A stretch of DNA of 44,382 nt from Gammaproteobacteria bacterium RIFCSPHIGHO2_02_FULL_42_13. Its GTDB lineage: Bacteria > Pseudomonadota > Gammaproteobacteria > UBA12402. Made by a program: the position numbers and the translations under genes. A model generated the notes under the pieces. The model ran no database searches and was not told the origin of the DNA. It saw only the letters and a program-made list of their open reading frames with translations. The stretch is taken from positions 3,066-47,447 of the forward strand of contig MGXQ01000064.1 of the NCBI GenBank assembly GCA_001801405.1, read 5' to 3'. This document shows, one piece after another, positions 8 through 36,097 of the stretch (within the stretch, counting starts at the first letter, position 1; the number at the start of each line of letters is the position of its first letter).

Positions 8-784
8 CTACGTTTCTATTTCTAATACGGACGTAATTTCGCCGCTCGTGATCGTATGCTCCATGTCCGGCGCAGTTTTGATCAATAACTGTCCATTCTT
101 ATTAATGCCTTTCGCAATTCCCGAAATCAATCTGTTCGGCGAATGCATGGTCACAAATTGTTCTTTTAATATGTCGAATTGATTCCACTCATCTTGAAAA
201 GCGACAGCGCCTTCTTGGTAAAATAAATTTAACGAGTCAAACAACTGATTAATTAATTTGCCGATAATTTGATTGCGATCAAGCGATTGATCAGTAATCT
301 CAAACAAATCAATCCATGGTTGATCGATACTCACCGTCTTCGGCAGCTGCACATTGATCCCGATGCCAATAATCACATCCGTTTTCGTCGTTTCAACTAA
401 AATACCGGCCAGTTTTCGCTGTTGCCACATAATATCGTTCGGCCATTTGATACCGATATGTTCTGTCACATCAAAATATGCAAGCGTTTTGATAATTGCA
501 ATGGCCACCACCAAACTCAAACCCATGATGTTTTGATACGCTTCTTTTAATGGCCAGCGCATCGAAAAATAAATATTATTAGCCGGCGACGCCCACGTTC
601 GATTAAATTGACCGCGCCCGGCGGTTTGTTGTTCGGCAATACAAACCGACGCTTTATCCACATGCGCTTGTTTTAATAAATAAGCGTTTGTCGAATCGAT
701 TGTTTTTAAAATTTTTATCTCTTGAATTTGTGATCGTACATTTTTATCGAGCAGTGCTTCAATCGTCTCTTTTTGCAAGCCCAT
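8..784 (-). CDS. birA: biotin--[acetyl-CoA-carboxylase] ligase, short class-I form without an N-terminal HTH
   Basis: 258-aa ORF with GRGQFNRTWASP and KWPNDI motifs of biotin protein ligases. Its TAG stop lies inside a GTAGCCTGTAT repeat end at the window edge. Confidence 0.85.
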   Translation of the reverse strand: MGLQKETIEALLDKNVRSQIQEIKILKTIDSTNAYLLKQAHVDKASVCIAEQQTAGRGQFNRTWASPANNIYFSMRWPLKEAYQNIMGLSLVVAIAIIKTLAYFDVTEHIGIKWPNDIMWQQRKLAGILVETTKTDVIIGIGINVQLPKTVSIDQPWIDLFEITDQSLDRNQIIGKLINQLFDSLNLFYQEGAVAFQDEWNQFDILKEQFVTMHSPNRLISGIAKGINKNGQLLIKTAPDMEHTITSGEITSVLEIET

Positions 785-5052: not shown

Positions 5053-5895
5053 CTACTTACTTCTCTCGTACTGATCCAACTGCAGAATCGTTTCCACGCT
5101 CAAATCAATCAAATCTTTCGTGATTTTTGGTATTTGCTTTTCATCAACCCAATCGGGCCCGTTGCTCACAATCGCACAAACCGCCCCTGCAAAAATTCGA
5201 AAGGCATAACCTTCGCCATACTTTTGCAGTTTTTGATTGTAACAAGCGCAAATGACAAACAGTACAGATGCTTCCATTTCAGAGGCAATGATGCCGGCAT
5301 CCTGTAAAATTTCGTGATAGCGAGCATTTTCCTTTTCGGACGGTCCGGATTTAAATTCACGCGCATACAATGAATCCTTTGTATGAAGTGTGCCAATATG
5401 CGTTTTTGATTTCATATTTAATTTTCGGCTGGCAAGATACGCACAGCGCAACATTTCAAACGACGCAATGGCCGGAAATTCTGGCGGCAAATAAGCCAGC
5501 GATGCGCCTTCATCACGCACGGCACCATTGGCAATGACTAAATCACCGAGTTTCGTTTTTTGGTATTGCAATGAACCTGATGTACCAACACGTAAAAAGC
5601 GCTTAGCGCCTAAGCGAATCAACTCATTTAAAATAATATCAACACTCGGCGTACCCATGCCTGACGAAACTGACGCGACCTCAATAATGTTATCATCGTA
5701 ACCTTTAATGGTGCCAAAATAAATGTCATGTCCACGCGAATGTTTTTGAACGGTCACATTATCGAAACGTTCTGCGATTTCCTTAGCGCGACCGAAAGAA
5801 CCGGGGAAAAAGATATAGCGACCCGAATCATTATTTCCATCAAAATCACCGAATTTTGCGTTGATATGAATCGGCTGAAAATCTTCATCGTACAT
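5053..5895 (-). CDS. nucleoside phosphorylase, uridine-phosphorylase-like (PNP/UDP family 1)
   Basis: Start set at MYDEDFQ (ATG 5895), because the longer ORF runs through the tRNA gene. SSGMGTPSVDIILNELIRLGAKRFLRVGTSGSLQ and VRDEGASLAYLPPEFPA align with Udp-type enzymes. Confidence 0.7.
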   Translation of the reverse strand: MYDEDFQPIHINAKFGDFDGNNDSGRYIFFPGSFGRAKEIAERFDNVTVQKHSRGHDIYFGTIKGYDDNIIEVASVSSGMGTPSVDIILNELIRLGAKRFLRVGTSGSLQYQKTKLGDLVIANGAVRDEGASLAYLPPEFPAIASFEMLRCAYLASRKLNMKSKTHIGTLHTKDSLYAREFKSGPSEKENARYHEILQDAGIIASEMEASVLFVICACYNQKLQKYGEGYAFRIFAGAVCAIVSNGPDWVDEKQIPKITKDLIDLSVETILQLDQYERSK

Positions 5896-5990
5896 AACAC
5901 ACACTCCACGGCGGATTAAAGTTGAGCCATTATACGATATATGTGGGTATACACAAGAGTTTTGATTGTTTTTCGACCTCGCCGAAAGCG

Positions 5991-6065
5991 TGGTGGGTGA
6001 TAGTGGGATCGAACCACTGACCCCTGCCGTGTGAAGGCAGTGCTCTACCGCTGAGCCAATCACCC
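5991..6065 (-). tRNA. tRNA-Val (anticodon CAC), CCA encoded
   Basis: The reverse complement is GGGTGATTGGCTCAGCGGTAGAGCACTGCCTTCACACGGCAGGGGTCAGTGGTTCGATCCCACTATCACCCACCA. It forms a cloverleaf with anticodon stem CTGCC/GGCAG, loop TTCACAC and a GGTTCGATCC T-arm. Confidence 0.9.
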
Positions 6066-8862: not shown

Positions 8863-9033
8863 TCAACAGCTCAGAGCTGCGGCAAGTAGGTGTCTGGAAA
8901 GACTTGCTATGACTGCTTTCCCGCAGCTCAGAGCTGCGGGGATTAAAATGTTGTATGATATTGCTTACTTCGCAGCTCTGAGCTGCTAAAAACCAGTCAC
9001 AGCCTGCCTCTCATCTGCTCAGAGCTGCAGAGG
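8863..9033. repeat. composite array of 4 CAGCTC[A/T]GAGCTG palindromes with conserved inter-core modules
   Basis: Cores lie at 8867-8879, 8923-8937, 8972-8986 and 9015-9030. The reverse complement matches 15031-15195 with about five mismatches by eye. Confidence 0.85.
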
Positions 9034-9719: not shown

Positions 9720-10526
9720 ATGCCTCCACCGCCGCCTGGCACATTAGAACTGTTGTTTCGTGCGATCGTGAATAATAAAATCGAGGATGTTGGTAGTCTT
9801 TGCAGAAAGTTTGGTAAGGATCTTGTTAATCAATCAGATAAATACGGGCGTACGCCGCTTTGGATAGCCGCTGATTGTTCTTCTACAACAGCGACAGGGT
9901 TCTTATTAAAATATGGCGCCAACCCAATGACTGCGGACGTCTGGAAACTCACGCCACTACACCAGGCCGCTATTAGAAATAATGCCAATATAGTTTCACA
10001 ACTCATAGAAGCGATCCCTGATAAAGGAGCGCGCACTGCTTACGTCAATCAAACCGATGCAACAGAAGAATCCGCGCTCTTTGTCTCTGCAGGTGAAAAC
10101 AATCATCAAATCGCTCTCATCTTAACAAAGGCCAAAGCAAATATAGCGTTACAAAACAGTCAAGGAGATACGCCTTTACATAGAATAAAAGATATCAGGA
10201 TGGCTGACATACTACTAAAAAACATCTACCCAGAAGATATGCGGCGAGCTCTTTCAATCAAAAATATTGATGACAAAACTGCTGCAGAAACTGTCACGGA
10301 GCCAAACGTTAGTGCATATTTAAAAAAGATGGAAGAAGATATCTTGCTTAAATTACAACAAGAACAATTCAAAAAACGATCTGAAAAAAAAGATAGCGTT
10401 CCGCCATCAGCCCTGCTGGTTACGGGAATGTTTGCTACTCGTCCCACCAGCCCATCCATTGCGCGATGTGGCTCTGATCGCGATTTAGTCGGGCGGGTGG
10501 CGCTTCTTCTCCAACGACGAGTATAA
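9720..10526 (+). CDS. ankyrin-repeat protein (about 4 ANK repeats plus a coiled/charged region and a GC-rich tail); effector-like
   Basis: The ANK consensus recurs (GRTPLWIAA..., LTPLHQAAIRNNANIV, ESALFVSAGENNHQIALIL, GDTPLH). The N-terminus starts MPPPPPG. Confidence 0.8.
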   Translation: MPPPPPGTLELLFRAIVNNKIEDVGSLCRKFGKDLVNQSDKYGRTPLWIAADCSSTTATGFLLKYGANPMTADVWKLTPLHQAAIRNNANIVSQLIEAIPDKGARTAYVNQTDATEESALFVSAGENNHQIALILTKAKANIALQNSQGDTPLHRIKDIRMADILLKNIYPEDMRRALSIKNIDDKTAAETVTEPNVSAYLKKMEEDILLKLQQEQFKKRSEKKDSVPPSALLVTGMFATRPTSPSIARCGSDRDLVGRVALLLQRRV

Positions 10527-12669: not shown

Positions 12670-13152
12670 TTACGCAAACTTTTCTTTCAACGCATTTGCA
12701 ATAACGGGCGGCACAAAATATGAAACATCACCATGCGAAGATGCAATGTCGCGCACAATGCTAGAAGAAACATAACTATATTTATCATCCGGTCGTAAAA
12801 AAACCGTTTCAACATCAGGCGATAACAAACGATTCACCCCTGCCAATTGAAACTCATAATCAAAATCAGAAATCATACGAATGCCACGCAAAATAATTTT
12901 TGCATGTTGCTCTTTTGCAAAATCGACTAATAAATTTTTAAATCCAACGACTTCAACATGATCAAAATCTTTTAAAACTGTCCGCGCCAAATTAACGCGC
13001 TCGTCGAGCGAAAACAAAGGCGATTTTTCCTCTTTCGCAGCAACCGCAACAACAATATGGTCAAATAAATTGAGCGCACGCTTGACCAGATCAAGATGGC
13101 CAAAAGTAATCGGATCGAATGTTCCGGGATAGATAGCAATTTTAGTTTTCAT
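12670..13152 (-). CDS. coaD: phosphopantetheine adenylyltransferase
   Basis: Start set at MKTKIAIYPGTFDPITFGHLD (T/HxGH motif). The longer ORF extension has no support. Confidence 0.9.
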   Translation of the reverse strand: MKTKIAIYPGTFDPITFGHLDLVKRALNLFDHIVVAVAAKEEKSPLFSLDERVNLARTVLKDFDHVEVVGFKNLLVDFAKEQHAKIILRGIRMISDFDYEFQLAGVNRLLSPDVETVFLRPDDKYSYVSSSIVRDIASSHGDVSYFVPPVIANALKEKFA

Positions 13153-13224: not shown

Positions 13225-13350
13225 TTCCTACAAAACTTTAATCCTCGCAGCTCTGAGCTGCTATCAAGCAGGTGGGGCAAGGAATAGAAAGGGGCTCATT
13301 CTCGCAGCTCTGAGCTCGCCGAGTTTATGCTCGCAGCTCAGAGCTGCAGC
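13225..13350. repeat. array of 3 GCAGCTC[T/A]GAGCT(G/C) palindromes plus an AAACTTTAATCC module
   Basis: Cores lie at 13247-13261, 13304-13318 and 13333-13347. The TTTAATCC(N)GCAGCTCTGAGCTGC module is shared with 15113-15137 and 17961-17986. Confidence 0.8.
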
Positions 13351-15028: not shown

Positions 15029-15236
15029 GGAGCAGCTCTGAGCAGATGAGAGACAGGCTGTGACTGACTTTTAGCAGCTCAGAGCTGCGAAGTAAGCAAT
15101 ATCCTACAACATTTTAATCCCCGCAGCTCTGAGCTGCGGGAAAGCAGTCATAGCAAGTCTTTCAAGACACCTACTTGCCGCAGCTCTGAGCTGATAAAAT
15201 CCAGTCATAGCATGGATTTTATCAGCTCAGAGCTAA
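15029..15236. repeat. composite array of 6 CAGCTC[T/A]GAGCTG palindromes; an inverted copy of 8863-9033 plus an extra doublet
   Basis: Cores lie near 15032, 15074, 15123, 15181 and 15223. The last doublet is CAGCTCTGAGCTGATAAAATCC...GGATTTTATCAGCTCAGAGCT. Confidence 0.85.
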
Positions 15237-16512: not shown

Positions 16513-17820
16513 TCAGGACGTAAGCGTCGCTTCAACGACGCCAATATCTGTCGGCGCTCGCCCTAACGAATATAATAAATCTAGCGCACTTTGTATACCA
16601 ACCTTCACCGTTTGATTGCGATCAGCTCGATTATCATAAATTTGGTAGAACACACGATATTCCATCGGCGTAACATTGATCATCATCGAGTTGGCACCCG
16701 CCAATAACGCGATTTTTTTGGCGCTCGCATCCAACGTCTCTAATGCAGTGGTCACCAAAATATTTGAATCCGGATCAACAAAACGTGTCAGCGCAATAAT
16801 CTTTAACATCGCATCAATCGATAATTTGCTCTGCGCGGCCAAAGGCGTATCAATAGCTGGAATCAACGGCCCAAACGAATACATGTCGGGGCCCAACGAT
16901 TGAGTTAGTAATATATTATTAACAATATCCTCAGGGGTTTCGTCAGGCAACCCTGCAATAAATCCCGTCGCAATAATATAACCCATCGATTTTAGCTGTT
17001 TAATCAATGTTAAGCGCTCGTGTAATGACGCGCCAGGCCGCAATTGTCTAAAAATATCCTCATTGGATGTTTCGAATCGCAATAATGCAGCACGTGCGCC
17101 AGCTTGATATAATTTTTGATACAACTCTTTATCGCGCATACCAATACTCAAAAAAACCAAAATGCCCATTGCTCGCAACGTGCTAACGATTTTTACTAAT
17201 TTTTTTTCGTCATACCAAGGATCTTCGCCCGATTGCAATACTAATGCTTTAAAACCATATTCATCGACAGCATGCTGTGCTACTTCAATAATTTCGTCAA
17301 CACTCATCCGATAGCGCTTGACTACGCGATCAGAACGAATGCCGCAATAATGACAATTTTCGCGACAATGATTTGAAAATTCAATGATACCGTGAATACA
17401 GCTTGCATTATCATGCTCACGATGCCGGATGTGATTGGCTAATTCATATAATACTTTTAACTCGCGCGGGTCTTCCAATTTCAAAAGCGCCAGCATGTCT
17501 TGTCGCGATAACGGTTTTTTTAAATTTACTTTTTGTAAAATTTGTAATGTATTGGCCGGCAAATCGCTTTCTGAAAAATGCGATAACCGCTCATCCATTT
17601 TTTTTAATTCAAAAAATTTATCTTTCCAGAGTGATAAAATCTCCAGTGCTTCTTCTGTAGAAATTTTGCGAACTAAAATACCGCCTTGTGCATAAACATA
17701 ATCACCCACTGCTGCGTCACTAAGATCCAATAAGATATTACGTTTTTCACCAAAATAATCGACTACGCCGCCGCCATTTTCGCGAATTTCAATTAATTGT
17801 CCTGGAATCGCATAGCACAT
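16513..17820 (-). CDS. fusion protein: N-terminal HypC/HupF-like chaperone domain plus a HydE/BioB-class radical SAM enzyme
   Basis: MCYAIPGQLIEI...GDYVYAQGGILVRKISTEEA gives the HypC signature. CRENCHYCGIR (CX3CX2C), IIEFSN, VLQSGEDP, LLRFETSN, GLPDET, ALTRF.DPDSNI..TTA and YQIY give a HydE-like radical-SAM/BATS core. Confidence 0.75.
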   Translation of the reverse strand: MCYAIPGQLIEIRENGGGVVDYFGEKRNILLDLSDAAVGDYVYAQGGILVRKISTEEALEILSLWKDKFFELKKMDERLSHFSESDLPANTLQILQKVNLKKPLSRQDMLALLKLEDPRELKVLYELANHIRHREHDNASCIHGIIEFSNHCRENCHYCGIRSDRVVKRYRMSVDEIIEVAQHAVDEYGFKALVLQSGEDPWYDEKKLVKIVSTLRAMGILVFLSIGMRDKELYQKLYQAGARAALLRFETSNEDIFRQLRPGASLHERLTLIKQLKSMGYIIATGFIAGLPDETPEDIVNNILLTQSLGPDMYSFGPLIPAIDTPLAAQSKLSIDAMLKIIALTRFVDPDSNILVTTALETLDASAKKIALLAGANSMMINVTPMEYRVFYQIYDNRADRNQTVKVGIQSALDLLYSLGRAPTDIGVVEATLTS

Positions 17821-17840
17821 ATTTTCACCATTTTCTTCAC

Positions 17841-18046
17841 CAACAGCTCTGAGCTTACAATTTTTTACTTGGCAGCTCTGAGCTGCGACAAGCCAGTCAC
17901 AGCAAGGGTTTTATCCCGTCTCGCAGCTCTGAGCTGTGGTGTAGGAAATATCATACAAAATTTTAATCCGCGCAGCTCTGAGCTGCTACAACAGAGGCGC
18001 AGCAAGCCTCTCCCGCCCCTTGATTGCGTCAGCTCTGAGCTGCGAT
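17841..18046. repeat. array of 5 same-orientation CAGCTCTGAGCT(G) palindromes inside the hydrogenase operon
   Basis: Cores lie at 17844, 17872, 17923, 17972 and 18030. The CCAGTCACAGC and TTTTAATCC modules are shared with other loci. Confidence 0.85.
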
Positions 18047-18472
18047 GAGGGTGATGATGTCGTTTAGGCAATCTCGTACACAATCGCTTAACCCTTCACC
18101 TAACGAAATATCTTTTGGCTGAATACCAATGATATCTATTTCTGTCTCACCCCCTAATTGCATCAACAACTCTAACACTTCGGCTAAGCCAAAACCATGT
18201 GTCGAAAGCGAATCCGATTTGACATAAATCTTGGCCTCTTCAGGCTTGAATCGCTTTATCGTCCCAGGCGGCATTTGCATGTTCACCGCATCAATAATCG
18301 TCACCTTTTTATACTGCGAAATTAAATCAATCAGCGCCAGTCCATCCGTGCCTCCGTTCACATAATCAACGTTTGGTTTTGGATATTCAGATAATAATTT
18401 TAATGCGGCTGGACCAACACCATCATCACGACGCAATAAATTTCCGATGGAAAGAATTAATATATGGGCCAT
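18029..18472 (-). CDS. [NiFe] hydrogenase maturation endopeptidase (HycI/HoxW/FrhD family)
   Basis: 147 aa with GNLLRRDDGVG, GGTDG and a conserved His region (STHGFG). The last 5 codons and the TGA come from the repeat core at 18030-18043. Confidence 0.8.
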   Translation of the reverse strand: MAHILILSIGNLLRRDDGVGPAALKLLSEYPKPNVDYVNGGTDGLALIDLISQYKKVTIIDAVNMQMPPGTIKRFKPEEAKIYVKSDSLSTHGFGLAEVLELLMQLGGETEIDIIGIQPKDISLGEGLSDCVRDCLNDIITLIAAQS

Positions 18473-18474
18473 AT

Positions 18475-19755
18475 TTACACGAACTCAACATCCAACATAT
18501 GCGCCGAACAAGAAATACAAGGATCGTAAGCGCGCACGAGCATTTCCAATAAAAGCGTAATTTCTTTCTGTGATTTTTTAGAAATGCCCGGCAATAATGC
18601 TTTAAAATCTTCTTCGATATTATTTACATTCTGTCCAGTAGGAATAACACAATTCGCATCTTGAACAATACCTTTATCATTAAATATATATTCATGATAC
18701 AACGTGCCGCGCGGCACTTCAACGGCACCCACGCCAGAACCCGGCGTCACGACAACAGAACGTTCTTCTAATTTTAAATTCATGTTTAATAAACTCTCTG
18801 CGGCCGCAATAGAATCATCCGCCACATGCACAAGCTCAACAAACTGTGCAACGGTATTTAAATAAGAATTATAACACGGCGACTTCAATCCTAAATCTCG
18901 CGCAATTTGTTTGGCATCATCCGACAACCATTGCCCATTGTTATTAAACCGCGCCAAAGCGCCCACCATGTATGATACGCGATTATGTTTTGCGCGCTTT
19001 GCGGTTGCATAATCAACAATATATTCGTTCACCACATTACGATAATTTTTATATGAAATCTCACCGACATCACTCGAATAAATGTTACCTTCTAACAAGG
19101 TATAAAACCCTTTTTTCTGCAGAGAAATATATTCTGTTTCTCTCTCAAACGCTGGAAACTTCAATCCCTTTAAAATAGAAACACCTTGTTTTAACTCTTC
19201 CTTTGCTTCGTGCAAGCGCTTTAATACTTCTTCTAATTCTTTTTTTGTCGGCAACTTTGACATCGCTTTAACATCCGTCGTCGTTGAATGGATCAAGCGA
19301 CCGCCAATAACCCCGCCGATGTAATGTCCAAATCGTTTTAAATTTAACGCATGCACAACAACATCTTTATTCGTTTTCGCGAGTGGAAAAACTGACTTAA
19401 TGCCTTTGAAATCAGGTACGGCCAAAAAATAAATATGTAATACATGACTTTCAAAAAACTCACCGCAATTTAACAATCGACGCAAACATTTTTCTTGTTC
19501 AGAAATCTTAACATTAAATGCGTCTTCAATCGCACGCAATGCCGCCAACTGATGCCCGACCGAACAAATACCACAAATGCGACTCGATACAATAATCGTC
19601 TCATCATAATGCCGACCTCGCAACATCGCTTCAAAAAAACGTGGTGCCTCGACAATTTCGAGCCGGCACATTAAAATTTTTCCCTTATTGATATCGACTT
19701 TAATATTCCCGTGCCCCTCGACTCGCGTAATGTGATGTACATCAATTTTTGTCAT
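18475..19755 (-). CDS. [NiFe] hydrogenase large (alpha) subunit, group 3b-like
   Basis: Start set at MTKIDVHHITRVEGHG. Has RICGICSVGH (L2) and C-terminal DPCISCSAH followed by a short cleavable extension. Start overlaps the small-subunit stop (ATGACAAAAATTGA). Confidence 0.88.
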   Translation of the reverse strand: MTKIDVHHITRVEGHGNIKVDINKGKILMCRLEIVEAPRFFEAMLRGRHYDETIIVSSRICGICSVGHQLAALRAIEDAFNVKISEQEKCLRRLLNCGEFFESHVLHIYFLAVPDFKGIKSVFPLAKTNKDVVVHALNLKRFGHYIGGVIGGRLIHSTTTDVKAMSKLPTKKELEEVLKRLHEAKEELKQGVSILKGLKFPAFERETEYISLQKKGFYTLLEGNIYSSDVGEISYKNYRNVVNEYIVDYATAKRAKHNRVSYMVGALARFNNNGQWLSDDAKQIARDLGLKSPCYNSYLNTVAQFVELVHVADDSIAAAESLLNMNLKLEERSVVVTPGSGVGAVEVPRGTLYHEYIFNDKGIVQDANCVIPTGQNVNNIEEDFKALLPGISKKSQKEITLLLEMLVRAYDPCISCSAHMLDVEFV

Positions 19756-20506
19756 CTGGAAAAATCTCCTTATCCCGCTCAAGAAATAATTTAAATTTAT
19801 CCAGCGCATCCGCTGCACTTAAATTATATTTCTGCAAAATTTCTTTCATCGATTCGATATTGGCTTTTGGAATAGCGCCGCGACAACCAAAACAGTAACC
19901 ACCATTGCTCGGGCAAATTGCATTACAACCCGCACGAATCACAGGCCCCAAGCAATGTATACCCTTTTCATATACACAGGTGTTTTCATTCATCTTACAT
20001 TCGACACATACTGGATAGGTCGGTATTTCAGGCTTTTTTCCCAACAATAAATCTTTTACAACACGTAAAAACTCATGCGTATCAATCGGGCACCCGGGAA
20101 TCATTGCATCGACCTTTACGACTTCACTCACACCTCTCGCAATCGTTGTACGATCAATCTCGGGATGACCCGGATACACTAAATGCAATAATTTGTCATC
20201 GGGATAAAAATTTCGAAGCGCATTCACGCCCGCAATGGTCGAACACGCCCCCAATGTCACCAATAATTTTGACCGCGCCCGAATATCTTTAATTTTTTCT
20301 TCATCGGGTTTACGCGAAATCGATCCTTCGATAAAAGCAATATCATAACTTTCCGCTTTATCGGTCATCACTTCACGAAATTCAACGATGTCGACTAACG
20401 CCAACAAATCAAATAATTGTTCCGGCGTTAAATCAACGGCACACAACTGACAACCTTCGCAACCGGTAAAATCAAAAAATGCAACCTTGGGTTTTTTAGA
20501 CATCAA
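19742..20506 (-). CDS. [NiFe] hydrogenase small (delta) subunit, NuoB-like
   Basis: 254 aa with FDFTGCEGCQ, GACS and GCP cluster-ligand motifs and distal Cys clusters (CVEC...C, CNAICP...C.GC). Confidence 0.85.
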   Translation of the reverse strand: MMSKKPKVAFFDFTGCEGCQLCAVDLTPEQLFDLLALVDIVEFREVMTDKAESYDIAFIEGSISRKPDEEKIKDIRARSKLLVTLGACSTIAGVNALRNFYPDDKLLHLVYPGHPEIDRTTIARGVSEVVKVDAMIPGCPIDTHEFLRVVKDLLLGKKPEIPTYPVCVECKMNENTCVYEKGIHCLGPVIRAGCNAICPSNGGYCFGCRGAIPKANIESMKEILQKYNLSAADALDKFKLFLERDKEIFPDDKN

Positions 20507-21363
20507 AATAACTCCTCGTTATGTTCGACATCCGCATAATTAAACACCGGCCCCTTCTGACACACATAAACACCTTCCATCTGACAATGGCCACATTTAC
20601 CTACGCCGCATTTCATACGACGCTCTAACGACATATAAATATTTTCTTTCGGCATGTGCTTATCCATCAATGATGTTAAGACAAACTTATACATGATCGG
20701 TGGCCCGACAATAATGGCGATTGTCTCGGCAGGATCAAAATCAATTTTAGGAATTAACGTCGTAATCACACCAACATTGCCAGTCCAATCTGCTTCGGGA
20801 TGATCCAACGTTTCAAGCAATTCAACATTGCTACCGACTGACAAGTGATGAATTTTTTTAAGTTCATCCGGAAACATACGATCTTGCGATGTTTTGCAAC
20901 CGTATAAAATTGAGATTTTTTTATAATTTTTTGCATTTGGAATGACTTGATTGATGAGCGACCGCAACGGAAAATAACCAATACCGCCTGCAATAAATAA
21001 CAAATGTTTCCCTCGCATGCGCTGAAAAATTTTATCATCAAAGCCGTGACCAAAAGGCCCGCGAATATAAATCAAATCATTTTTTTTAAATGTAAATAAT
21101 TTTTTAGTGACATCGCCAACCGCACGTGCGCATAAATCAAAACGATTACCCGAATCAGGCGGCGATGCAATTGAAATGGGTGCCTCACCTATTCCCAAAA
21201 TAGATACTTCAACAAATTGTCCTGGATCATGCCCCAAACTTCCTTTGCGTAACAATTCAATCTGAAAAAACTTTTCATGCTCGGTAAAATTTCTAACCTT
21301 AACGATTCTTGCAGGTTCCGGCAAATACAGTTTTGCATTGGATTGAACTAATGCTAATTCCAT
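20503..21363 (-). CDS. hydrogenase gamma subunit: FAD/NAD(P)-binding oxidoreductase with a C-terminal 2Fe-2S cluster
   Basis: 286 aa. Ferredoxin-reductase-type fold signatures (GIGEAPISI, LLFIAGGIG) and CGVGKCGHCQ. Start/stop overlaps with its neighbours. Confidence 0.8.
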   Translation of the reverse strand: MELALVQSNAKLYLPEPARIVKVRNFTEHEKFFQIELLRKGSLGHDPGQFVEVSILGIGEAPISIASPPDSGNRFDLCARAVGDVTKKLFTFKKNDLIYIRGPFGHGFDDKIFQRMRGKHLLFIAGGIGYFPLRSLINQVIPNAKNYKKISILYGCKTSQDRMFPDELKKIHHLSVGSNVELLETLDHPEADWTGNVGVITTLIPKIDFDPAETIAIIVGPPIMYKFVLTSLMDKHMPKENIYMSLERRMKCGVGKCGHCQMEGVYVCQKGPVFNYADVEHNEELF

Positions 21364-22385
21364 TCTTTTTCATCCTCACCATTAATCGCTTCTGCAATGG
21401 TTTTTGGACTGATGTCGGCCAGACACGCACGCACACAGCGTCCACAACCCACACAAACCGATTGTCCATGTTTCTTCATCAAATAATTAAATTTTCGATT
21501 GATGCGATGATGTAATCGCGCAGTCGCCGTCGGGCGAAAGTTTTCACCCGTTGCCACCGTCGTAAAATCATGCAGCATACACGCATCCCAATGACGCTGG
21601 CGCTTTCCGGCCCGCATATTCAGCTCCCAATCATCGGTAACATTAAAACAATAGCAGGTGGGACAAACCATAACACAAGAACCGCAGCTCAAACAGCGCG
21701 CACCTTCATGCTCCCAAACCGGATGATGCGTGTTTTCTTGAAAAAGCTCGGGGAATTTTTCTAAGTCTTTAAATGGCTTTAATGATTCAAATGCTTTTGC
21801 TTTCGCTTGTTGGTATTCCTCTAATTCTTTTTCTTCACCTTTGATCGCCCGCAAGAATTGTTCGGCAAACACATTTCCGCGATCGGTTGCGACCTCAACA
21901 AGATATTGATCATCTTTCAGCGGATATAACATGATATCATAACCCGTCTTTGCATAATGTGCGCCGACCTTATAACAAAATGAGTCTTGATCACAGGTTT
22001 GATGACAATCCAATCCAATGATAATTGCTTTCTCGCGTCGCTCTAAATAATTGGGATCACCATGCAGATCGGCAAACGCTTCATCTAATATTTGAATGCC
22101 GCGCAAATCACATGGATGAATACCAAATAAGACGAGCGGTTTAGATTCGATCTTCGCAATAATTTGTCCATCGGCAGTATAATCAAGAAGCGTTTCATGC
22201 GGCGGAAAGAAAAATTTCTTTGGCGGTAACACGGTCGGTCGACAACCCCAAAAAATATCGTGACTCGTCTTTACATAGTTATACAAAACTCGACTATCTT
22301 GCTTCGTTAAAGCGGCCACTTGATAAGTTGATAAAACTTGATCGATCCCTTTCAAAAGCGCCGTTTTTGTGGTTTTGAGCAGCAT
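21354..22385 (-). CDS. hydrogenase beta subunit: 4Fe-4S dicluster protein (sulfhydrogenase beta-like)
   Basis: 343 aa with CLSCGSCVMVCPTCYC and CVGCGRCVRAC ferredoxin-type motifs. Confidence 0.8.
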   Translation of the reverse strand: MLLKTTKTALLKGIDQVLSTYQVAALTKQDSRVLYNYVKTSHDIFWGCRPTVLPPKKFFFPPHETLLDYTADGQIIAKIESKPLVLFGIHPCDLRGIQILDEAFADLHGDPNYLERREKAIIIGLDCHQTCDQDSFCYKVGAHYAKTGYDIMLYPLKDDQYLVEVATDRGNVFAEQFLRAIKGEEKELEEYQQAKAKAFESLKPFKDLEKFPELFQENTHHPVWEHEGARCLSCGSCVMVCPTCYCFNVTDDWELNMRAGKRQRHWDACMLHDFTTVATGENFRPTATARLHHRINRKFNYLMKKHGQSVCVGCGRCVRACLADISPKTIAEAINGEDEKEWN

Positions 22386-22412: not shown

Positions 22413-23084
22413 TTATTGCACAGATGTAACAATAACATTTATTGGGTGGGATGACAATAGCATCTGACACCACGCATCAACCCCTTCTCCCGTCGTGCAC
22501 GAGACTTCCAATATCTTTACTTTTGGATTAATCTTTTTAAGATCTGCATAAAAACGCGCGCGATTAAAATTAAGATACGGCAAGAGATCAATTTTGTTTA
22601 GCACAACTATGCTGGCTTCGCGAAACAACAAGGGATACTTTATCACTTTATCATCTCCTTCGCACACGCTTAACACGGCAATTTTGAAATTTTCACCCAC
22701 ATCAAATTCCGCCGGACAAACTAAATTACCAATATTCTCCACAAAAATTAAATCTAACTTTTTCAAATCAAATGCATTCAGTGCCTTCTCAACACTCACT
22801 GACTCCAAATGACATGCCCCGTGCGTATTCACCATCGCAATCGGCACTTGATAGGGTGCTAAACGTTTGGCATCCTCGTCCGTTTCAACATCACCTTCAA
22901 TCACCGCCATGCGATAACGTTGACGCAATATTGAAAACGTTTTTTCCAAAAGAGATGTTTTGCCTGCGCCGGGCGAGCCAATTAAATTTAACATGCAAAT
23001 GTTATGTTGTTTCAATCGCGCGCGCAAATCATTTGCTTTTTCTTCATTGGCGATTAACAAATCTTGTTTAATTAAAATTTCCAT
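22413..23084 (-). CDS. hypB: hydrogenase nickel-incorporation GTPase
   Basis: 223 aa with P-loop GSPGAGKT, ENIGNLVCPAEFD and NKIDL. No His-rich N-terminus. Confidence 0.9.
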   Translation of the reverse strand: MEILIKQDLLIANEEKANDLRARLKQHNICMLNLIGSPGAGKTSLLEKTFSILRQRYRMAVIEGDVETDEDAKRLAPYQVPIAMVNTHGACHLESVSVEKALNAFDLKKLDLIFVENIGNLVCPAEFDVGENFKIAVLSVCEGDDKVIKYPLLFREASIVVLNKIDLLPYLNFNRARFYADLKKINPKVKILEVSCTTGEGVDAWCQMLLSSHPINVIVTSVQ

Positions 23085-23087
23085 ATG

Positions 23088-23429
23088 TTAGTCCCCATCA
23101 ATACTGCTTAAAATAATTTCTTTTCCGCTTAAAATATCCAACTCGACACTATCACAGTGCGGACAGCAATAACTATCACCGATCACTTTAAATTCTTTTT
23201 TACACTGTACACAAAGTGCTTTTACTGGAATTTCTCGAATAATTAATTTAGATCCTGATGCAATCGTATCTTTCGCTAACGTTTCAAACGCAAACTGCAA
23301 AAATTCGGGAATGCATTGCCGCATTTGACCAATTTCTAATGTCGCTTTATTGATTTTTTTTAGATTGTTTTTGACCGCCGTTTGCTCAATGGTTTTTAAA
23401 ATATCTTGTATGATTGAAAACTCGTGCAT
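23088..23429 (-). CDS. hypA: hydrogenase nickel-insertion metallochaperone
   Basis: Canonical MHEFSI start (ATG 23429). The zinc site is CVQC...CPHC. The 6-codon GTG-initiated extension in the ORF track is unsupported. Confidence 0.88.
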   Translation of the reverse strand: MHEFSIIQDILKTIEQTAVKNNLKKINKATLEIGQMRQCIPEFLQFAFETLAKDTIASGSKLIIREIPVKALCVQCKKEFKVIGDSYCCPHCDSVELDILSGKEIILSSIDGD

Positions 23430-23479
23430 AAGATTGTATATTATCACACTTCAAATCACTAACAAGGAGAATAAAATTC

Positions 23480-24094
23480 ATGCGCACTGCACAGCATCCT
23501 CAACATGAACAATTAAAACAGTATCTCGCAAAGGATCAATGGATCCGCATGTTACCACTCGTTGACAAAACAGAAGATCCCGCTTTGCATTGGACGATTT
23601 CGCATGTAACAGAAATTCAAGACAAAAAAGAACGCAACACCTATCACAATCTCACCAAGGCGCTGATTGATGCGGATTTTAATTTAGCGTTACGTGGCGC
23701 TGCGTGTGGTGGACTAACAGAATTAGTAGGTATCCTATTAACATATCGACAAATACTCGGTATTGATATCGATGCACGAGGCGCCCATACACAACAAACC
23801 GCCTTGCATCGTGCCACCAAAGGTGGTCATGCTGCTATCGTTCGACAATTATTGGCACATGGTGCAACGCTCACACCAAAAGATCAGGCAGGAAAGACAG
23901 CAGAAGATCTGGCTCAAAAAGATGATATACGAGATTTATTAACACGACCCACCACATCACCAACCGAATCCGATGGCTATGACGCCGATGGGGAAAAAAC
24001 AAATGGTTCAGAACCAGAAATGGTAGATAGTCCCGCGGTCTGCGACAAGGAAGTAGAGGAGGGATTCACATTGGTTAACGCCACAGGCAATTAA
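23480..24094 (+). CDS. ankyrin-repeat protein (2-3 ANK repeats) with an acidic C-terminal tail; effector-like
   Basis: QTALHRATKGGHAAIVRQLLAHGATLTPKDQAGKTAEDLA matches the ANK consensus. It diverges from hypA with only about 50 nt between start codons. Confidence 0.75.
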   Translation: MRTAQHPQHEQLKQYLAKDQWIRMLPLVDKTEDPALHWTISHVTEIQDKKERNTYHNLTKALIDADFNLALRGAACGGLTELVGILLTYRQILGIDIDARGAHTQQTALHRATKGGHAAIVRQLLAHGATLTPKDQAGKTAEDLAQKDDIRDLLTRPTTSPTESDGYDADGEKTNGSEPEMVDSPAVCDKEVEEGFTLVNATGN

Positions 24095-34104: not shown

Positions 34105-34170
34105 CTGCGCAGCTCTGAGCTGCTACAAGATAGGCTGTGACTAGATTAGAGCAGCTCAGAGCTGCGCTGC
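34105..34170. repeat. REPIN-like doublet: GCAGCTCTGAGCTGC - 27 nt - GCAGCTCAGAGCTGC
   Basis: Cores lie at 34109-34123 and 34151-34165. About 3 mismatches in 57 nt versus 36039-36095, in the same orientation. Confidence 0.85.
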
Positions 34171-34410: not shown

Positions 34411-36030
34411 ATGCCCATTCACAAAATTGATTTACTCAACATTATTAGGCAACAATATGACGAACGAAAAGGCGCAATACGCAAACGATTAAACACTCGT
34501 TCATTCGGCATGAAAAAACTATTTAACATCATCGATGCATTTCCCGATGGTGATCTCTCACAAAAAGATTTAATCAAAATTCTGAATGGAATTTTCGGCC
34601 TTTCGTCTTGGAATCGTAATACACTAACCGGCGAAATTGCGAACCAAATGAGAGAGCATATTCTCTGTCAATTAGATACTCACTTGCATCGCATATTTTT
34701 TCTCGACAACTGGACAGCCCTATCGCTCGGCAAAGGCGCGGCTGAAGATAATTTTTCGATCGGTTTTGCAAAAAGTTTATTAGCTCGAATCCTCACTCTA
34801 GTAAACAAAGATGAAAAAGAAATATTCCGAGAAGAATTTATCAAAATTTTAGAACGCAATCCTAACTTGCGTATGGCAATATTATCAGAAACCACACAAC
34901 ATACTCATGAAATACAACAGCGGGCGCAACGTGCCATTAAAAATTTACTCGATGGCGACCCGATACTCGCAACACTCGTACATAAAACATTTAAGCGCGC
35001 CAACAAACAGTTATTCGAGGAACATAGGCAAAGCTGGGCCAGACGCGGTTTAACGAACGCCGAGCAAATTTTCTCATCCCTCAAAACCGATACCGCACGC
35101 AACGAATTTGCCACTCATTTGTTAGCACAGCCGCTCGATCCCAATATGGAACTCGATATTGTCGCGGCAGATGGGAAGTTATGCCAAACAATACTGACCA
35201 GCGTCATCCCTATAAATGAGTCACGACATCTTTATTTTCAAGCTCGCAATCGACAAATTCACTCTCAAAATGACATTAAAAACACACTCGGTTTTTCCAA
35301 AATATCCCCCAACTCCATTCCCGCTGCGCTCGCTGCTGTCGTATTGCGCGTTAAATCACTCTGGAAACAAGTCGAGCCATCCTGGTGGGATAATTTTCGT
35401 CATTTGGTAGGCTGGGAATCAGAACATATCTCGACGTTGCGTAAAAATAACCCTTTATTTGAAATCGCACTGGACTCGCCTAAAAATAAATTAAATTCAT
35501 TATATAGAGCATTTTGCAATAGCGCTCTGAGCCATCCAGATCGATCTGTTATCGCACATCACTTATGCGAAACATTGTTAGCTGAAACAACCCACGCTAA
35601 TTTTACCGCCTGGATGACGCGAACTGATTTAGAAAATCAACAGTTGCTCGCTTACGCTTTAACCGTCGGTCGCTATCGCTTAATATTATCACTACATCAT
35701 GGCGTAGCGGATTTGCGAGAACTACTTCCGACATCTGATTTACAAACAGCAATTAATCACATGGGGGACAATGTGGATCCATTTATTCAATCCAAAATAC
35801 CGCCAATCAGGGAGCCTTTGCGCACACGCGTAAAACCTGTCATTCCTGGATTGAGCTCTGCCTTTATGAGATGCGGTTTAGGCGCAGGTCGCGACACCCA
35901 TCCAACCGTTGAACAAGATGAACCTGCTGCTGGCGCTACGGCTGATACAGCTTCGCCACATCCTCAACCCGCCCCGGCAAGCAAAAACCCACATGCACCG
36001 CTTTTAGCAAGATCAACTCACTCTCGCTAA
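34411..36030 (+). CDS. orphan 539-aa protein with no recognisable domain and a Pro/Ala-rich GC-rich C-terminal tail; effector-like
   Basis: A long uninterrupted ORF with AGGA 8 nt upstream. It is bracketed by direct repeat doublets and preceded by the MITE. Confidence 0.6.
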   Translation: MPIHKIDLLNIIRQQYDERKGAIRKRLNTRSFGMKKLFNIIDAFPDGDLSQKDLIKILNGIFGLSSWNRNTLTGEIANQMREHILCQLDTHLHRIFFLDNWTALSLGKGAAEDNFSIGFAKSLLARILTLVNKDEKEIFREEFIKILERNPNLRMAILSETTQHTHEIQQRAQRAIKNLLDGDPILATLVHKTFKRANKQLFEEHRQSWARRGLTNAEQIFSSLKTDTARNEFATHLLAQPLDPNMELDIVAADGKLCQTILTSVIPINESRHLYFQARNRQIHSQNDIKNTLGFSKISPNSIPAALAAVVLRVKSLWKQVEPSWWDNFRHLVGWESEHISTLRKNNPLFEIALDSPKNKLNSLYRAFCNSALSHPDRSVIAHHLCETLLAETTHANFTAWMTRTDLENQQLLAYALTVGRYRLILSLHHGVADLRELLPTSDLQTAINHMGDNVDPFIQSKIPPIREPLRTRVKPVIPGLSSAFMRCGLGAGRDTHPTVEQDEPAAGATADTASPHPQPAPASKNPHAPLLARSTHSR

Positions 36031-36034
36031 TCGC

Positions 36035-36097
36035 CCACGCAGCTCTGAGCTGCTACAAGATAGGCCGCGACTGGATTAGAGCAGCTCAGAGCTGCTC
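36035..36097. repeat. REPIN-like doublet, a direct copy of 34105-34170
   Basis: Cores lie at 36039-36053 and 36081-36095. Confidence 0.85.

Follow-up and report, generated by a model that had tools for sequence, protein, structure and literature searches.

The stretch of DNA analysed here (the window) comprises 44,382 nucleotides of contig MGXQ01000064.1 from Gammaproteobacteria bacterium RIFCSPHIGHO2_02_FULL_42_13. On its minus strand it carries a [NiFe] hydrogenase operon with the gene order hypA, hypB, beta, gamma, delta, alpha and HycI-type protease, followed after a gap by the gene for a fusion protein and then by a rubrerythrin-like gene (Table 1). The fusion protein, in which a HypC domain precedes a HydE-type radical S-adenosylmethionine (SAM) enzyme, is the subject of this report. 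[NiFe] and [FeFe] hydrogenases are a textbook case of convergent evolution, with separate maturation machineries. Current reviews hold that every [NiFe] enzyme needs six Hyp proteins, and they leave unresolved where the CO ligand comes from under anaerobic conditions; a 2025 review of [NiFe] maturation does not mention radical SAM enzymes, HydG or HydE (PMC12134894).

Identity of the fusion protein and its operon

The fusion gene is a single uninterrupted open reading frame (ORF) encoding 435 residues. As an earlier note on this DNA had read from the letters alone, the translation begins with MCYAIPGQ, continues with GDYVYAQGGILVRKISTEEA at residue 39 and contains IIEFSN (residue 145), CRENCHYCGIR (152), VLQSGEDP (194), LLRFETSN (246), GLPDET (290) and YQIY (392), while the CPEDC and YNHNL motifs of BioB are absent. 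The N-terminus, which the same note had assigned to HypC, matches the full HupF_HypC model of Pfam (PF01455, model positions 1–65) over residues 1–65 with 51.9 bits, against a cutoff of 28.5, and scores 41.4 bits with the narrower HypC model TIGR00074, below its cutoff of 48. Among PDB sequences, Thermococcus kodakarensis HypC (2z1c) matches residues 1–67, and 3vyr was also matched. The HypC assignment is thereby upheld.

The remainder of the protein belongs to the HydE class and not to BioB, PylB or HmdB, again in agreement with the earlier note. Pfam places Radical_SAM at residues 146–301 and BATS at residues 319–398, and the top NCBIfam model is that of HydE (TIGR03956), with 250.9 bits against an equivalog cutoff of 254.6. 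The other identities considered were rejected: BioB (TIGR00433) reached 115.2 bits against a cutoff of 225, PylB (TIGR03910) 149.8 against 348.2, HmdB (TIGR03957) 69.3 against 320.9, and ThiH 57.5 against 380. Thermotoga maritima HydE (TmHydE) matches residues 92–423 end to end with 242 bits, as compared with 106 bits for PylB and 50 bits for BioB in the same set of PDB sequences.

An AlphaFold2 model, built from an alignment of 43 family members, has a pLDDT of 88.8 and a pTM of 0.88. Its HypC part consists of five strands (residues 7–12, 17–22, 25–30, 41–45 and 48–53) and a helix (residues 55–79), and a Foldseek comparison with TmHydE gave TM-scores of 0.93–0.96 and a root-mean-square deviation of 1.3 Å over 334 columns. 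Since the HypC helix ends at residue 79 and HydE homology starts at residue 92, the linker is only about 12 residues long (80–91), not about 60 as first estimated. Both halves are under strong purifying selection: against the 88%-identical copy in locus L046, the ratio of nonsynonymous to synonymous substitution rates (dN/dS) is 0.064 for the whole gene, 0.036 for the HypC half and 0.067 for the HydE half.

The large subunit of the adjacent hydrogenase carries a 7-aa C-terminal extension. Its best PDB matches are the alpha subunits of the T. kodakarensis cytosolic hydrogenase and of Pyrococcus furiosus sulfhydrogenase I (5yxy, 9nez; 220–225 bits), versus 193 bits for Mvh and 140 bits for Frh. 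The four subunits and the sulfhydrogenase-type large subunit support, at the sequence level, an assignment of the enzyme to group 3b. Searches by tblastn, motif scanning and Pfam, the last applied to the larger of the 61 ORFs of at least 90 aa (about 40), found no hypD, hypE, hypF, hydF or hydG in the 44-kb window, so that the picture of an operon with hypA, hypB and protease genes but no hypD/E/F is borne out at this scale. Two genes probably start further downstream than their listed ORFs. For the large subunit, whose ORF runs 77 nt into the small-subunit gene, the start is likely to be the Met of MTKIDVHH near 19755; for HypA, it is likely to be Met7 of the ORF (MHEFSI), where the Pfam match begins.

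Table 1. Fusion gene, its domains and motifs, and the surrounding operon in window coordinates.
Feature	Position	Strand	Evidence or remark
HypC–HydE fusion gene	16513..17820	(-)	Uninterrupted ORF, 435 aa; Pfam, NCBIfam, PDB, AlphaFold2, Foldseek
HypC domain, aa 1–79	17584..17820	(-)	Five-strand barrel and long helix; PF01455, 51.9 bits
Short linker, aa 80–91	17548..17583	(-)	pLDDT about 70, without regular structure; poorly conserved
HydE-type radical SAM (beta-alpha)8 barrel, aa 92–435	16513..17547	(-)	TIGR03956, TmHydE match, Foldseek
CX3CX2C radical SAM cluster motif, C152/C156/C159	17344..17367	(-)	Aligned to TmHydE C63/C67/C70
S140-C141-I142-H143, family-specific, start of barrel strand 1	17392..17403	(-)	H143 in place of HydE R54
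Rubrerythrin/ferritin-like four-helix protein, 154 aa	16025..16489	(-)	PF02915, 39.2 bits; directly downstream of fusion
Intergenic gap (about 209 nt) with most of the five-copy REP-like palindrome array	17821..18028		
[NiFe] maturation endopeptidase, HycI family	18029..18472	(-)	PF01750, 82.3 bits
[NiFe] hydrogenase large subunit (alpha), group 3b-like	18475..19818	(-)	PF00374; RICGICSVGH, DPCISCSAH
Hydrogenase small (delta) subunit	19742..20506	(-)	PF01058
Gamma subunit, FAD/NAD(P)-binding, [2Fe-2S]	20503..21363	(-)	PF00175, PF10418
Beta subunit, Fer4_22 iron-sulfur	21354..22385	(-)	PF17179, 108.5 bits
HypB nickel GTPase	22413..23084	(-)	PF02492
HypA nickel metallochaperone	23088..23447	(-)	PF01155, 111.8 bits, aa 7–117

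Distribution, gene neighbourhoods and residue patterns

More than 120 protein-database clusters (90% identity) share the three-domain architecture. Their names vary between 'biotin synthase', 'HydE' and 'radical SAM protein', and NCBI calls several members HydE; the identification given above corrects the labels 'biotin synthase' and '[FeFe] maturase HydE', which are widespread errors in this family. A scan of one genome per GTDB species revealed that a relative is encoded in at least 304 species-level genomes. Among the best 80 of these 304 relatives, nearly all span both domains, a few being cut by contig ends. The bacterial hosts of these 80 are Coxiellaceae-like Gammaproteobacteria, Omnitrophota, Patescibacteria, Margulisbacteria, Elusimicrobiota, Planctomycetota and Nitrospirota, and the archaeal hosts are Nano-, Woese-, Aenigmat-, Micr- and Altiarchaeota. 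When 1.84 billion representatives were searched exhaustively, about 20 full-length fusion clusters at 50% identity were obtained, followed by a sharp drop to unfused HydEs. A neighbor-joining tree that includes TmHydE groups the fusions in a single clade, set off from it by a long stem.

Two other architectures were encountered. Three HydE-like proteins (P0276, P0291 and P0292) carry PF11823, a 'putative Se/S carrier', in the N-terminal position of the HypC domain. This domain is of a different family and lacks the HypC signature, but it is likewise a small carrier-type domain at the same place and so lends support to a tethered domain acting as acceptor or donor. P0267 (803 aa) is a HydE–HydG fusion without HypC.

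Gene neighbourhoods were compared in 80 loci and the window (81 in total), in which ORFs were called and clustered. In 38 of the 81, the next gene downstream on the same strand encodes HydG, a paralogue of 455–465 aa. Three representatives scanned with TIGR03955 scored 486–591 bits against a cutoff of 312, the CX2CX22C auxiliary-cluster motif is kept in 40/40 full-length HydG partners, and these partners are about 60% identical to the HydG named in Thermoanaerobacter. The two genes are usually translationally coupled, with a gap of at most 11 nt in 30 of the 38 pairs and often a 4-nt overlap. Profile searches also located [NiFe] markers (large and small subunits, HycI-type protease, HypA and HypB) beside many copies, the protease hits including a divergent archaeal HycI-type form. 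Where at least 3 kb was available on each side (46 loci), [NiFe] markers were found in 26 loci and HydG in 30; both were present in 13 and neither in only 3. A typical operon reads beta-gamma-delta-alpha-protease-fusion-HydG (L059, L073, L078 and L088).

HydG is not only adjacent to the fusion but in some cases joined to it. P0242 (906 aa) and P0252 (881 aa) combine HupF_HypC, HydE and HydG in one chain, with HydE scores of 348–371 bits, above the cutoff, and HydG scores of 607–631 bits. P0242 occurs on five independent contigs; in a Nitrospiraceae genome, its gene comes directly after beta-gamma-delta-alpha-HycI. The P0252 gene has the beta/gamma genes on one side and the small- and large-subunit genes on the other, with HypA nearby. 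Such triple fusions in [NiFe] clusters are evidence of the Rosetta-stone type for a joint action of HypC, HydE and HydG in a [NiFe] context. Indeed, the finding of HydG next to or fused with the HypC–HydE protein in most lineages suggests that the HydG-to-HydE line of the [FeFe] type was imported wholesale, with HypC as the acceptor. The earlier note had counted no accessory function in the window's operon, besides hypA/hypB and the protease, other than the fusion and its ferritin-like neighbour; as an account of the maturation branch this is not supported as stated, the recurrent partner in the wider family being a canonical HydG.

In none of the 81 loci, examined out to 10 kb from the fusion, did tblastn with Escherichia coli seeds, signature motifs or Pfam reveal a HypD, HypE or HypF gene. 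Proteins of about 374–384 aa upstream of sister operons were considered as HypD and rejected, as they are PAS histidine kinases or glycosyltransferases. A HydF-like gene was likewise found in none of the 81 loci, by a crude motif scan and among the conserved clusters and Pfam-annotated contexts, and HydA-like motifs were detected by motif scan in only 4/81. The arrangement thus resembles the HydG–HydE–HydF line in that genes for HydG and a HydE-type enzyme occur together and in many cases are coupled or fused; it differs in that HydF is absent from all neighbourhoods, a HypC domain stands in its logical place and the nearby hydrogenase is of the [NiFe] type.

Residue conservation was examined in 69 intact fusions, with 98 unfused HydE representatives for comparison. 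Like HypC, HybG and HupF (for example E. coli HypC and T. kodakarensis HypC, PDB 2Z1C), the N-terminal domain has a Met-Cys start, the pattern MC(x)(A/G)(I/V)PG and a small OB-like beta-barrel with a C-terminal helix, and it is found in a [NiFe] operon with hypA, hypB and a protease gene. Cys2, which in HypC proteins is essential as ligand of the iron and of the large subunit, is invariant (69/69). Yet the fusions differ from these proteins in being tethered to a radical SAM enzyme, in having no gene nearby for HypD, with which (and with HypE/F) HypC assembles Fe(CN)2CO, and in possessing an invariant Tyr3 and DYFGE (residues 21–25) of their own. Moreover, the position of E. coli His51, a conserved probable Fe ligand on the HypCD scaffold (PMC12134894), is occupied by Gln (Gln45) in all 69.

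The HydE half shares with TmHydE (PDB 3CIW/7O1O) the full (beta-alpha)8 barrel at 40% identity, the CX3CX2C motif, the relay methionines and the residues of the SAM and substrate end. C152, C156 and C159 are present in 69/69 fusions, and M313 and M380 are invariant in the same set; their TmHydE equivalents M224 and M291 bind or relay Fe(CO)2(CN) species (PMC10114646). TmHydE R159, R180, R257 and T268 are also kept invariant, and the auxiliary-cluster cysteines (TmHydE C311/C319/C322) are absent, placing the fusions in the HydE subset without an auxiliary cluster; HydG is a genomic neighbour in most lineages. The differences, apart from the added HypC domain, the location in [NiFe] instead of [FeFe] operons and the lack of a nearby HydF, are concentrated elsewhere in the barrel. 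According to a review (PMC10114646), the exit site S3 of HydE consists of one threonine together with two arginines, and [FeFe] maturation depends on it. An unbiased screen for positions conserved in both groups with different residues singled out TmHydE R54, T134 and R155. These are Arg, Thr and Arg in 87–88% of the 98 unfused HydEs (R54 in 88%) and His (100%), Phe (96%) and Ala/Gly (100%) in the fusions. In addition, TmHydE H52 is replaced by an invariant Cys, and both C141 and H143 are found in 69/69. The sequences indicate that the substrate end of HydE is conserved and, on a provisional assignment of these three positions to S3, that its product-exit end appears to be rebuilt with a Cys/His pair. 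As judged from these alignments, the HypC and HydE domains would both deviate exactly at the positions that handle partners.

A proposed maturation route and competing explanations

Domain identities, residue patterns, gene linkage and the single-chain HypC–HydE–HydG proteins of [NiFe] operons form the observed basis for a functional proposal, which we favor with somewhat less than even confidence. The fusion would be a two-domain maturase for the adjacent group-3b [NiFe] hydrogenase, in which the product of HydG-type Fe-CO/CN chemistry passes to the HydE domain, to the tethered HypC domain and on to the large subunit, bypassing HypD, HypE and HypF; both this direction of iron transfer and the HypDEF independence are what we infer from the above patterns. 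In such a route, HydG would build an Fe(Cys)(CO)2(CN)-type synthon from tyrosine, and the HydE-type barrel would bind it and strip the cysteine scaffold by SAM-radical chemistry, as HydE does in the [FeFe] pathway. There would be no hand-over to HydF; instead, the remodelled exit, with Cys141/His143 in place of the Arg/Thr/Arg of S3, may pass the Fe-carbonyl-cyanide unit to Cys2 of HypC, and the HypC domain would then insert it into the apo large subunit. Nickel would be added by HypA/HypB and the C-terminus trimmed by the HycI protease. The fusion and HydG would together take over from HypC, HypD, HypE and HypF, and the HypC domain would stand in the place of HydF. The suggestion in the earlier note of a non-canonical maturation branch is therefore in line with the comparative data, which do point there; its more specific picture of radical chemistry on HypC-bound iron, read here as a way to supply the CO ligand, is not supported as stated, the recurrent partner being a canonical HydG, an enzyme that makes CO and CN from tyrosine.

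The window's own clade requires separate consideration. In the neighbor-joining tree, this gammaproteobacterial group is a derived tip group nested among HydG-linked clades. The slot downstream of the fusion holds a rubrerythrin-like gene or dapF instead of HydG, the former at +1 in 11 loci by clustering and 13 by hidden Markov model profiles. This ferritin-like neighbour is specific to the clade and is more simply read as protection against oxidative stress. Of 125 positions that are conserved in the HydG-linked fusions, the clade retains 112, and every catalytic and substrate-end residue is among them. A single change stands out: residue 140 (codon 17401–17403 in the window) is Ser in 14/15 members of the clade and Cys in 98% of 41 HydG-linked fusions, so that the CCxH of the latter becomes SCxH at residues 140–143, and this switch coincides with the loss of the adjacent hydG and the gain of the rubrerythrin-like gene. 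Given the retained positions and the purifying selection, HydG or another source of the synthon is expected elsewhere in the genome.

The same clade very likely appears in the literature. No paper describing a hybrid HypC–HydE–HydG route was found, and the only literature found is a passing mention in a 2026 preprint, where a fusion of HydE with HypC in Candidatus Centrionella anaeramoebae, noted as unusual, appears in a single sentence (bioRxiv 10.64898/2026.04.11.717937). This anaerobic Legionellales symbiont also has a 3b-like [NiFe] hydrogenase, a HybD-type protease, HypA, HypB and an ankyrin gene nearby, and its fusion very likely falls in the clade of the window. The preprint does not analyse how the fusion is distributed, whether it is linked to HydG, which residues differ or what it does, nor does it discuss HypD/E/F. 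The fusion is built from known parts; the proposed hybrid route would be undescribed so far.

Several points weigh against the proposed route. HydG is absent within 10 kb in all 15–17 loci of the window's clade and was not found within 16 kb on one side and 26 kb on the other of the window fusion; HydG homology searches also gave no gammaproteobacterial sequence among the best 120 of about 8000 matches, which is weak evidence. The product of HydG is of the (CO)2(CN) type and the [NiFe] site is (CO)(CN)2, a mismatch for which a conversion of one into the other would have to be assumed. The window protein falls 3.7 bits short of NCBI's HydE cutoff (TIGR03956). The equation of R54, T134 and R155 with S3 is provisional, as the review describes the site without residue numbers. 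Finally, in four Omnitrophota-like loci (L062, L066, L067 and L069), a HydB-HydA-HydC [FeFe] hydrogenase lies between the fusion and HydG. The order there is [NiFe]-3b, protease, fusion, Rex, histidine kinase, HydB (NuoF-like), HydA-like, HydC (NuoE-like), response regulator and HydG, and in these loci the HydE half could serve the [FeFe] enzyme. The HydA-like protein of L062 and L067 has TSCSPGW in place of the usual TSCCPxW.

These four loci, with [NiFe]-3b and [FeFe] genes in one stretch together with the fusion and HydG, are one argument for a division of labor in which the HypC half works in a canonical HypCDEF pathway encoded elsewhere, the HydE half works with HydG and HydF in the synthesis of the [FeFe] H-cluster, and the fusion merely reflects co-regulation of genes for hydrogen metabolism. 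[FeFe] hydrogenases are indeed known in many of the host phyla, and Hyp genes are often scattered across genomes. Nevertheless, this explanation appears unlikely. HydA-like motifs occur in only 4 of the 81 loci and HydF in none, and the window operon and the triple-fusion operons hold [NiFe] genes only. The residues taken as S3, important for [FeFe] maturation, and the His51 of HypC are replaced in all fusions. The architecture is tight and invariant across bacteria and archaea, with dN/dS values of 0.04–0.07, which would be unusual for incidental fusions. Furthermore, the presence of HydE and HydG in archaea does not track [FeFe] hydrogenases, full HydEFG being found in just 5/130 archaeal genomes with such enzymes (PMC11216029), an observation that is also consistent with the hybrid route.

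In another explanation, which follows the idea of the earlier note, canonical HypD, HypE and HypF encoded elsewhere would provide the cyanide, and the HydE-like domain would act without HydG on the iron or cysteine at Cys2 of HypC, for instance by generating or installing the anaerobic CO ligand or by delivering iron or sulfur. The absence of an adjacent HydG from the window's clade and several others fits this, as does the open question of the anaerobic CO source in the reviews. The N-terminal cysteine of HypC may also resemble the free cysteine ligand of HydG and HydE substrates, and the C140S switch specific to this clade may, together with the neighbouring rubrerythrin-like gene, point to an altered way of working. 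All the same, we regard it as improbable. The 112/125 positions kept in the clade, among which no HydE substrate-end residue is changed, argue for the same class of substrate, and the clade is a derived tip nested among HydG-linked ones. His51, needed in the HypCD scaffold, is missing, and no HypD/E/F gene lies near any copy. As for a housekeeping radical SAM enzyme (BioB-, PylB- or ThiH-like) that acquired a HypC-like N-terminus and is unrelated to hydrogenase maturation, the JGI label 'biotin synthase' on many family members and a biotin ligase gene in the window (8–784) speak for it, but it is effectively refuted by NCBIfam scores far under the BioB, PylB and ThiH cutoffs, the missing BioB motifs, PDB matches and a structure closest to HydE by a wide margin, and the consistent placement of the gene in hydrogenase operons.

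Extended to the whole family, the HydG–HydE–HypC route may represent a second, HypD/HypE/HypF-independent path to the [NiFe] site, widespread in DPANN archaea, Patescibacteria, Omnitrophota, Margulisbacteria and anaerobic Legionellales-like symbionts and supplying a defined anaerobic source of CO; this broader claim is put forward more tentatively still. If correct, it would provide a mechanistic link between the [NiFe] and [FeFe] maturation systems and a tyrosine-derived source of both CO and CN for [NiFe] enzymes. It would explain the orphan HydE and HydG genes of archaea and candidate phyla and would account for hydrogenase maturation in very small genomes, where two genes would do the work of four; the replacement of HypC, HypD, HypE and HypF by two genes fits host lineages with small genomes. 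It would also define a minimal gene set for the heterologous production of soluble group-3b hydrogenases.

Repeats and other genes of the window

A palindromic 11-mer, AGCTCAGAGCT (the core of CAGCTC-A-GAGCTG), occurs in 20 copies in the window, versus 0 expected. Sites of this repetitive extragenic palindromic (REP)-like repeat are 8868–8984, 13249–13345, 15076–15234, 17845–18041, 34111–34163, 36041–36093 and 42865 in the window and 9866–9982, 12907–13023 and 14761–14828 in L046. All copies lie within or border intergenic gaps and are clustered at a spacing of about 29–57 nt. This palindrome is a dispersed, REP-like element specific to the lineage; outside the window, only L046, the 88%-identical relative, has it. 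The array upstream of the fusion was considered as a regulatory site and rejected because the element is dispersed throughout the window. Its fifth copy (18031–18041) is inside the 3' end of the protease gene, and the array yields spurious ORFs with 'SSELR' peptides around 17797–18083. A scan for promoters and terminators was uninformative.

The same junction between protease and fusion is variable in sister loci. In nine of them (L001, L003, L004, L006, L007, L014–L016 and L019), it holds a gene for a DsbD_2-type membrane protein of 214–277 aa with a His-rich loop (HTHIHMHADGTKHIHDHGHCYEHAHMH), a possible nickel transporter; in the window and L046, this gene is missing and the REP array takes its place. 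In L002 (6272–7761), an AbiEi/AbiEii toxin-antitoxin pair and a 656-aa orphan gene are inserted there, which marks the junction as an insertion hotspot.

The remainder of the 44 kb consists of housekeeping and ankyrin-repeat genes. A 336-aa PNP_UDP_1 ORF (5053–6063, minus strand) overlaps tRNA-Val(CAC) (5991–6065, minus strand) at its 5' end, and its real start must therefore be further downstream. A 539-aa ORF (34411–36030, plus strand) has no Pfam match and REP-like repeats on its flanks; it could encode a lineage-specific, perhaps effector-like, protein. Ankyrin-repeat proteins are encoded on the plus strand at 9720–10526 and 23480–24094, the latter directly upstream of hypA on the opposite strand. 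Both genes are in keeping with a Legionellales/Coxiellaceae-like, host-associated organism such as that of the Ca. Centrionella preprint.

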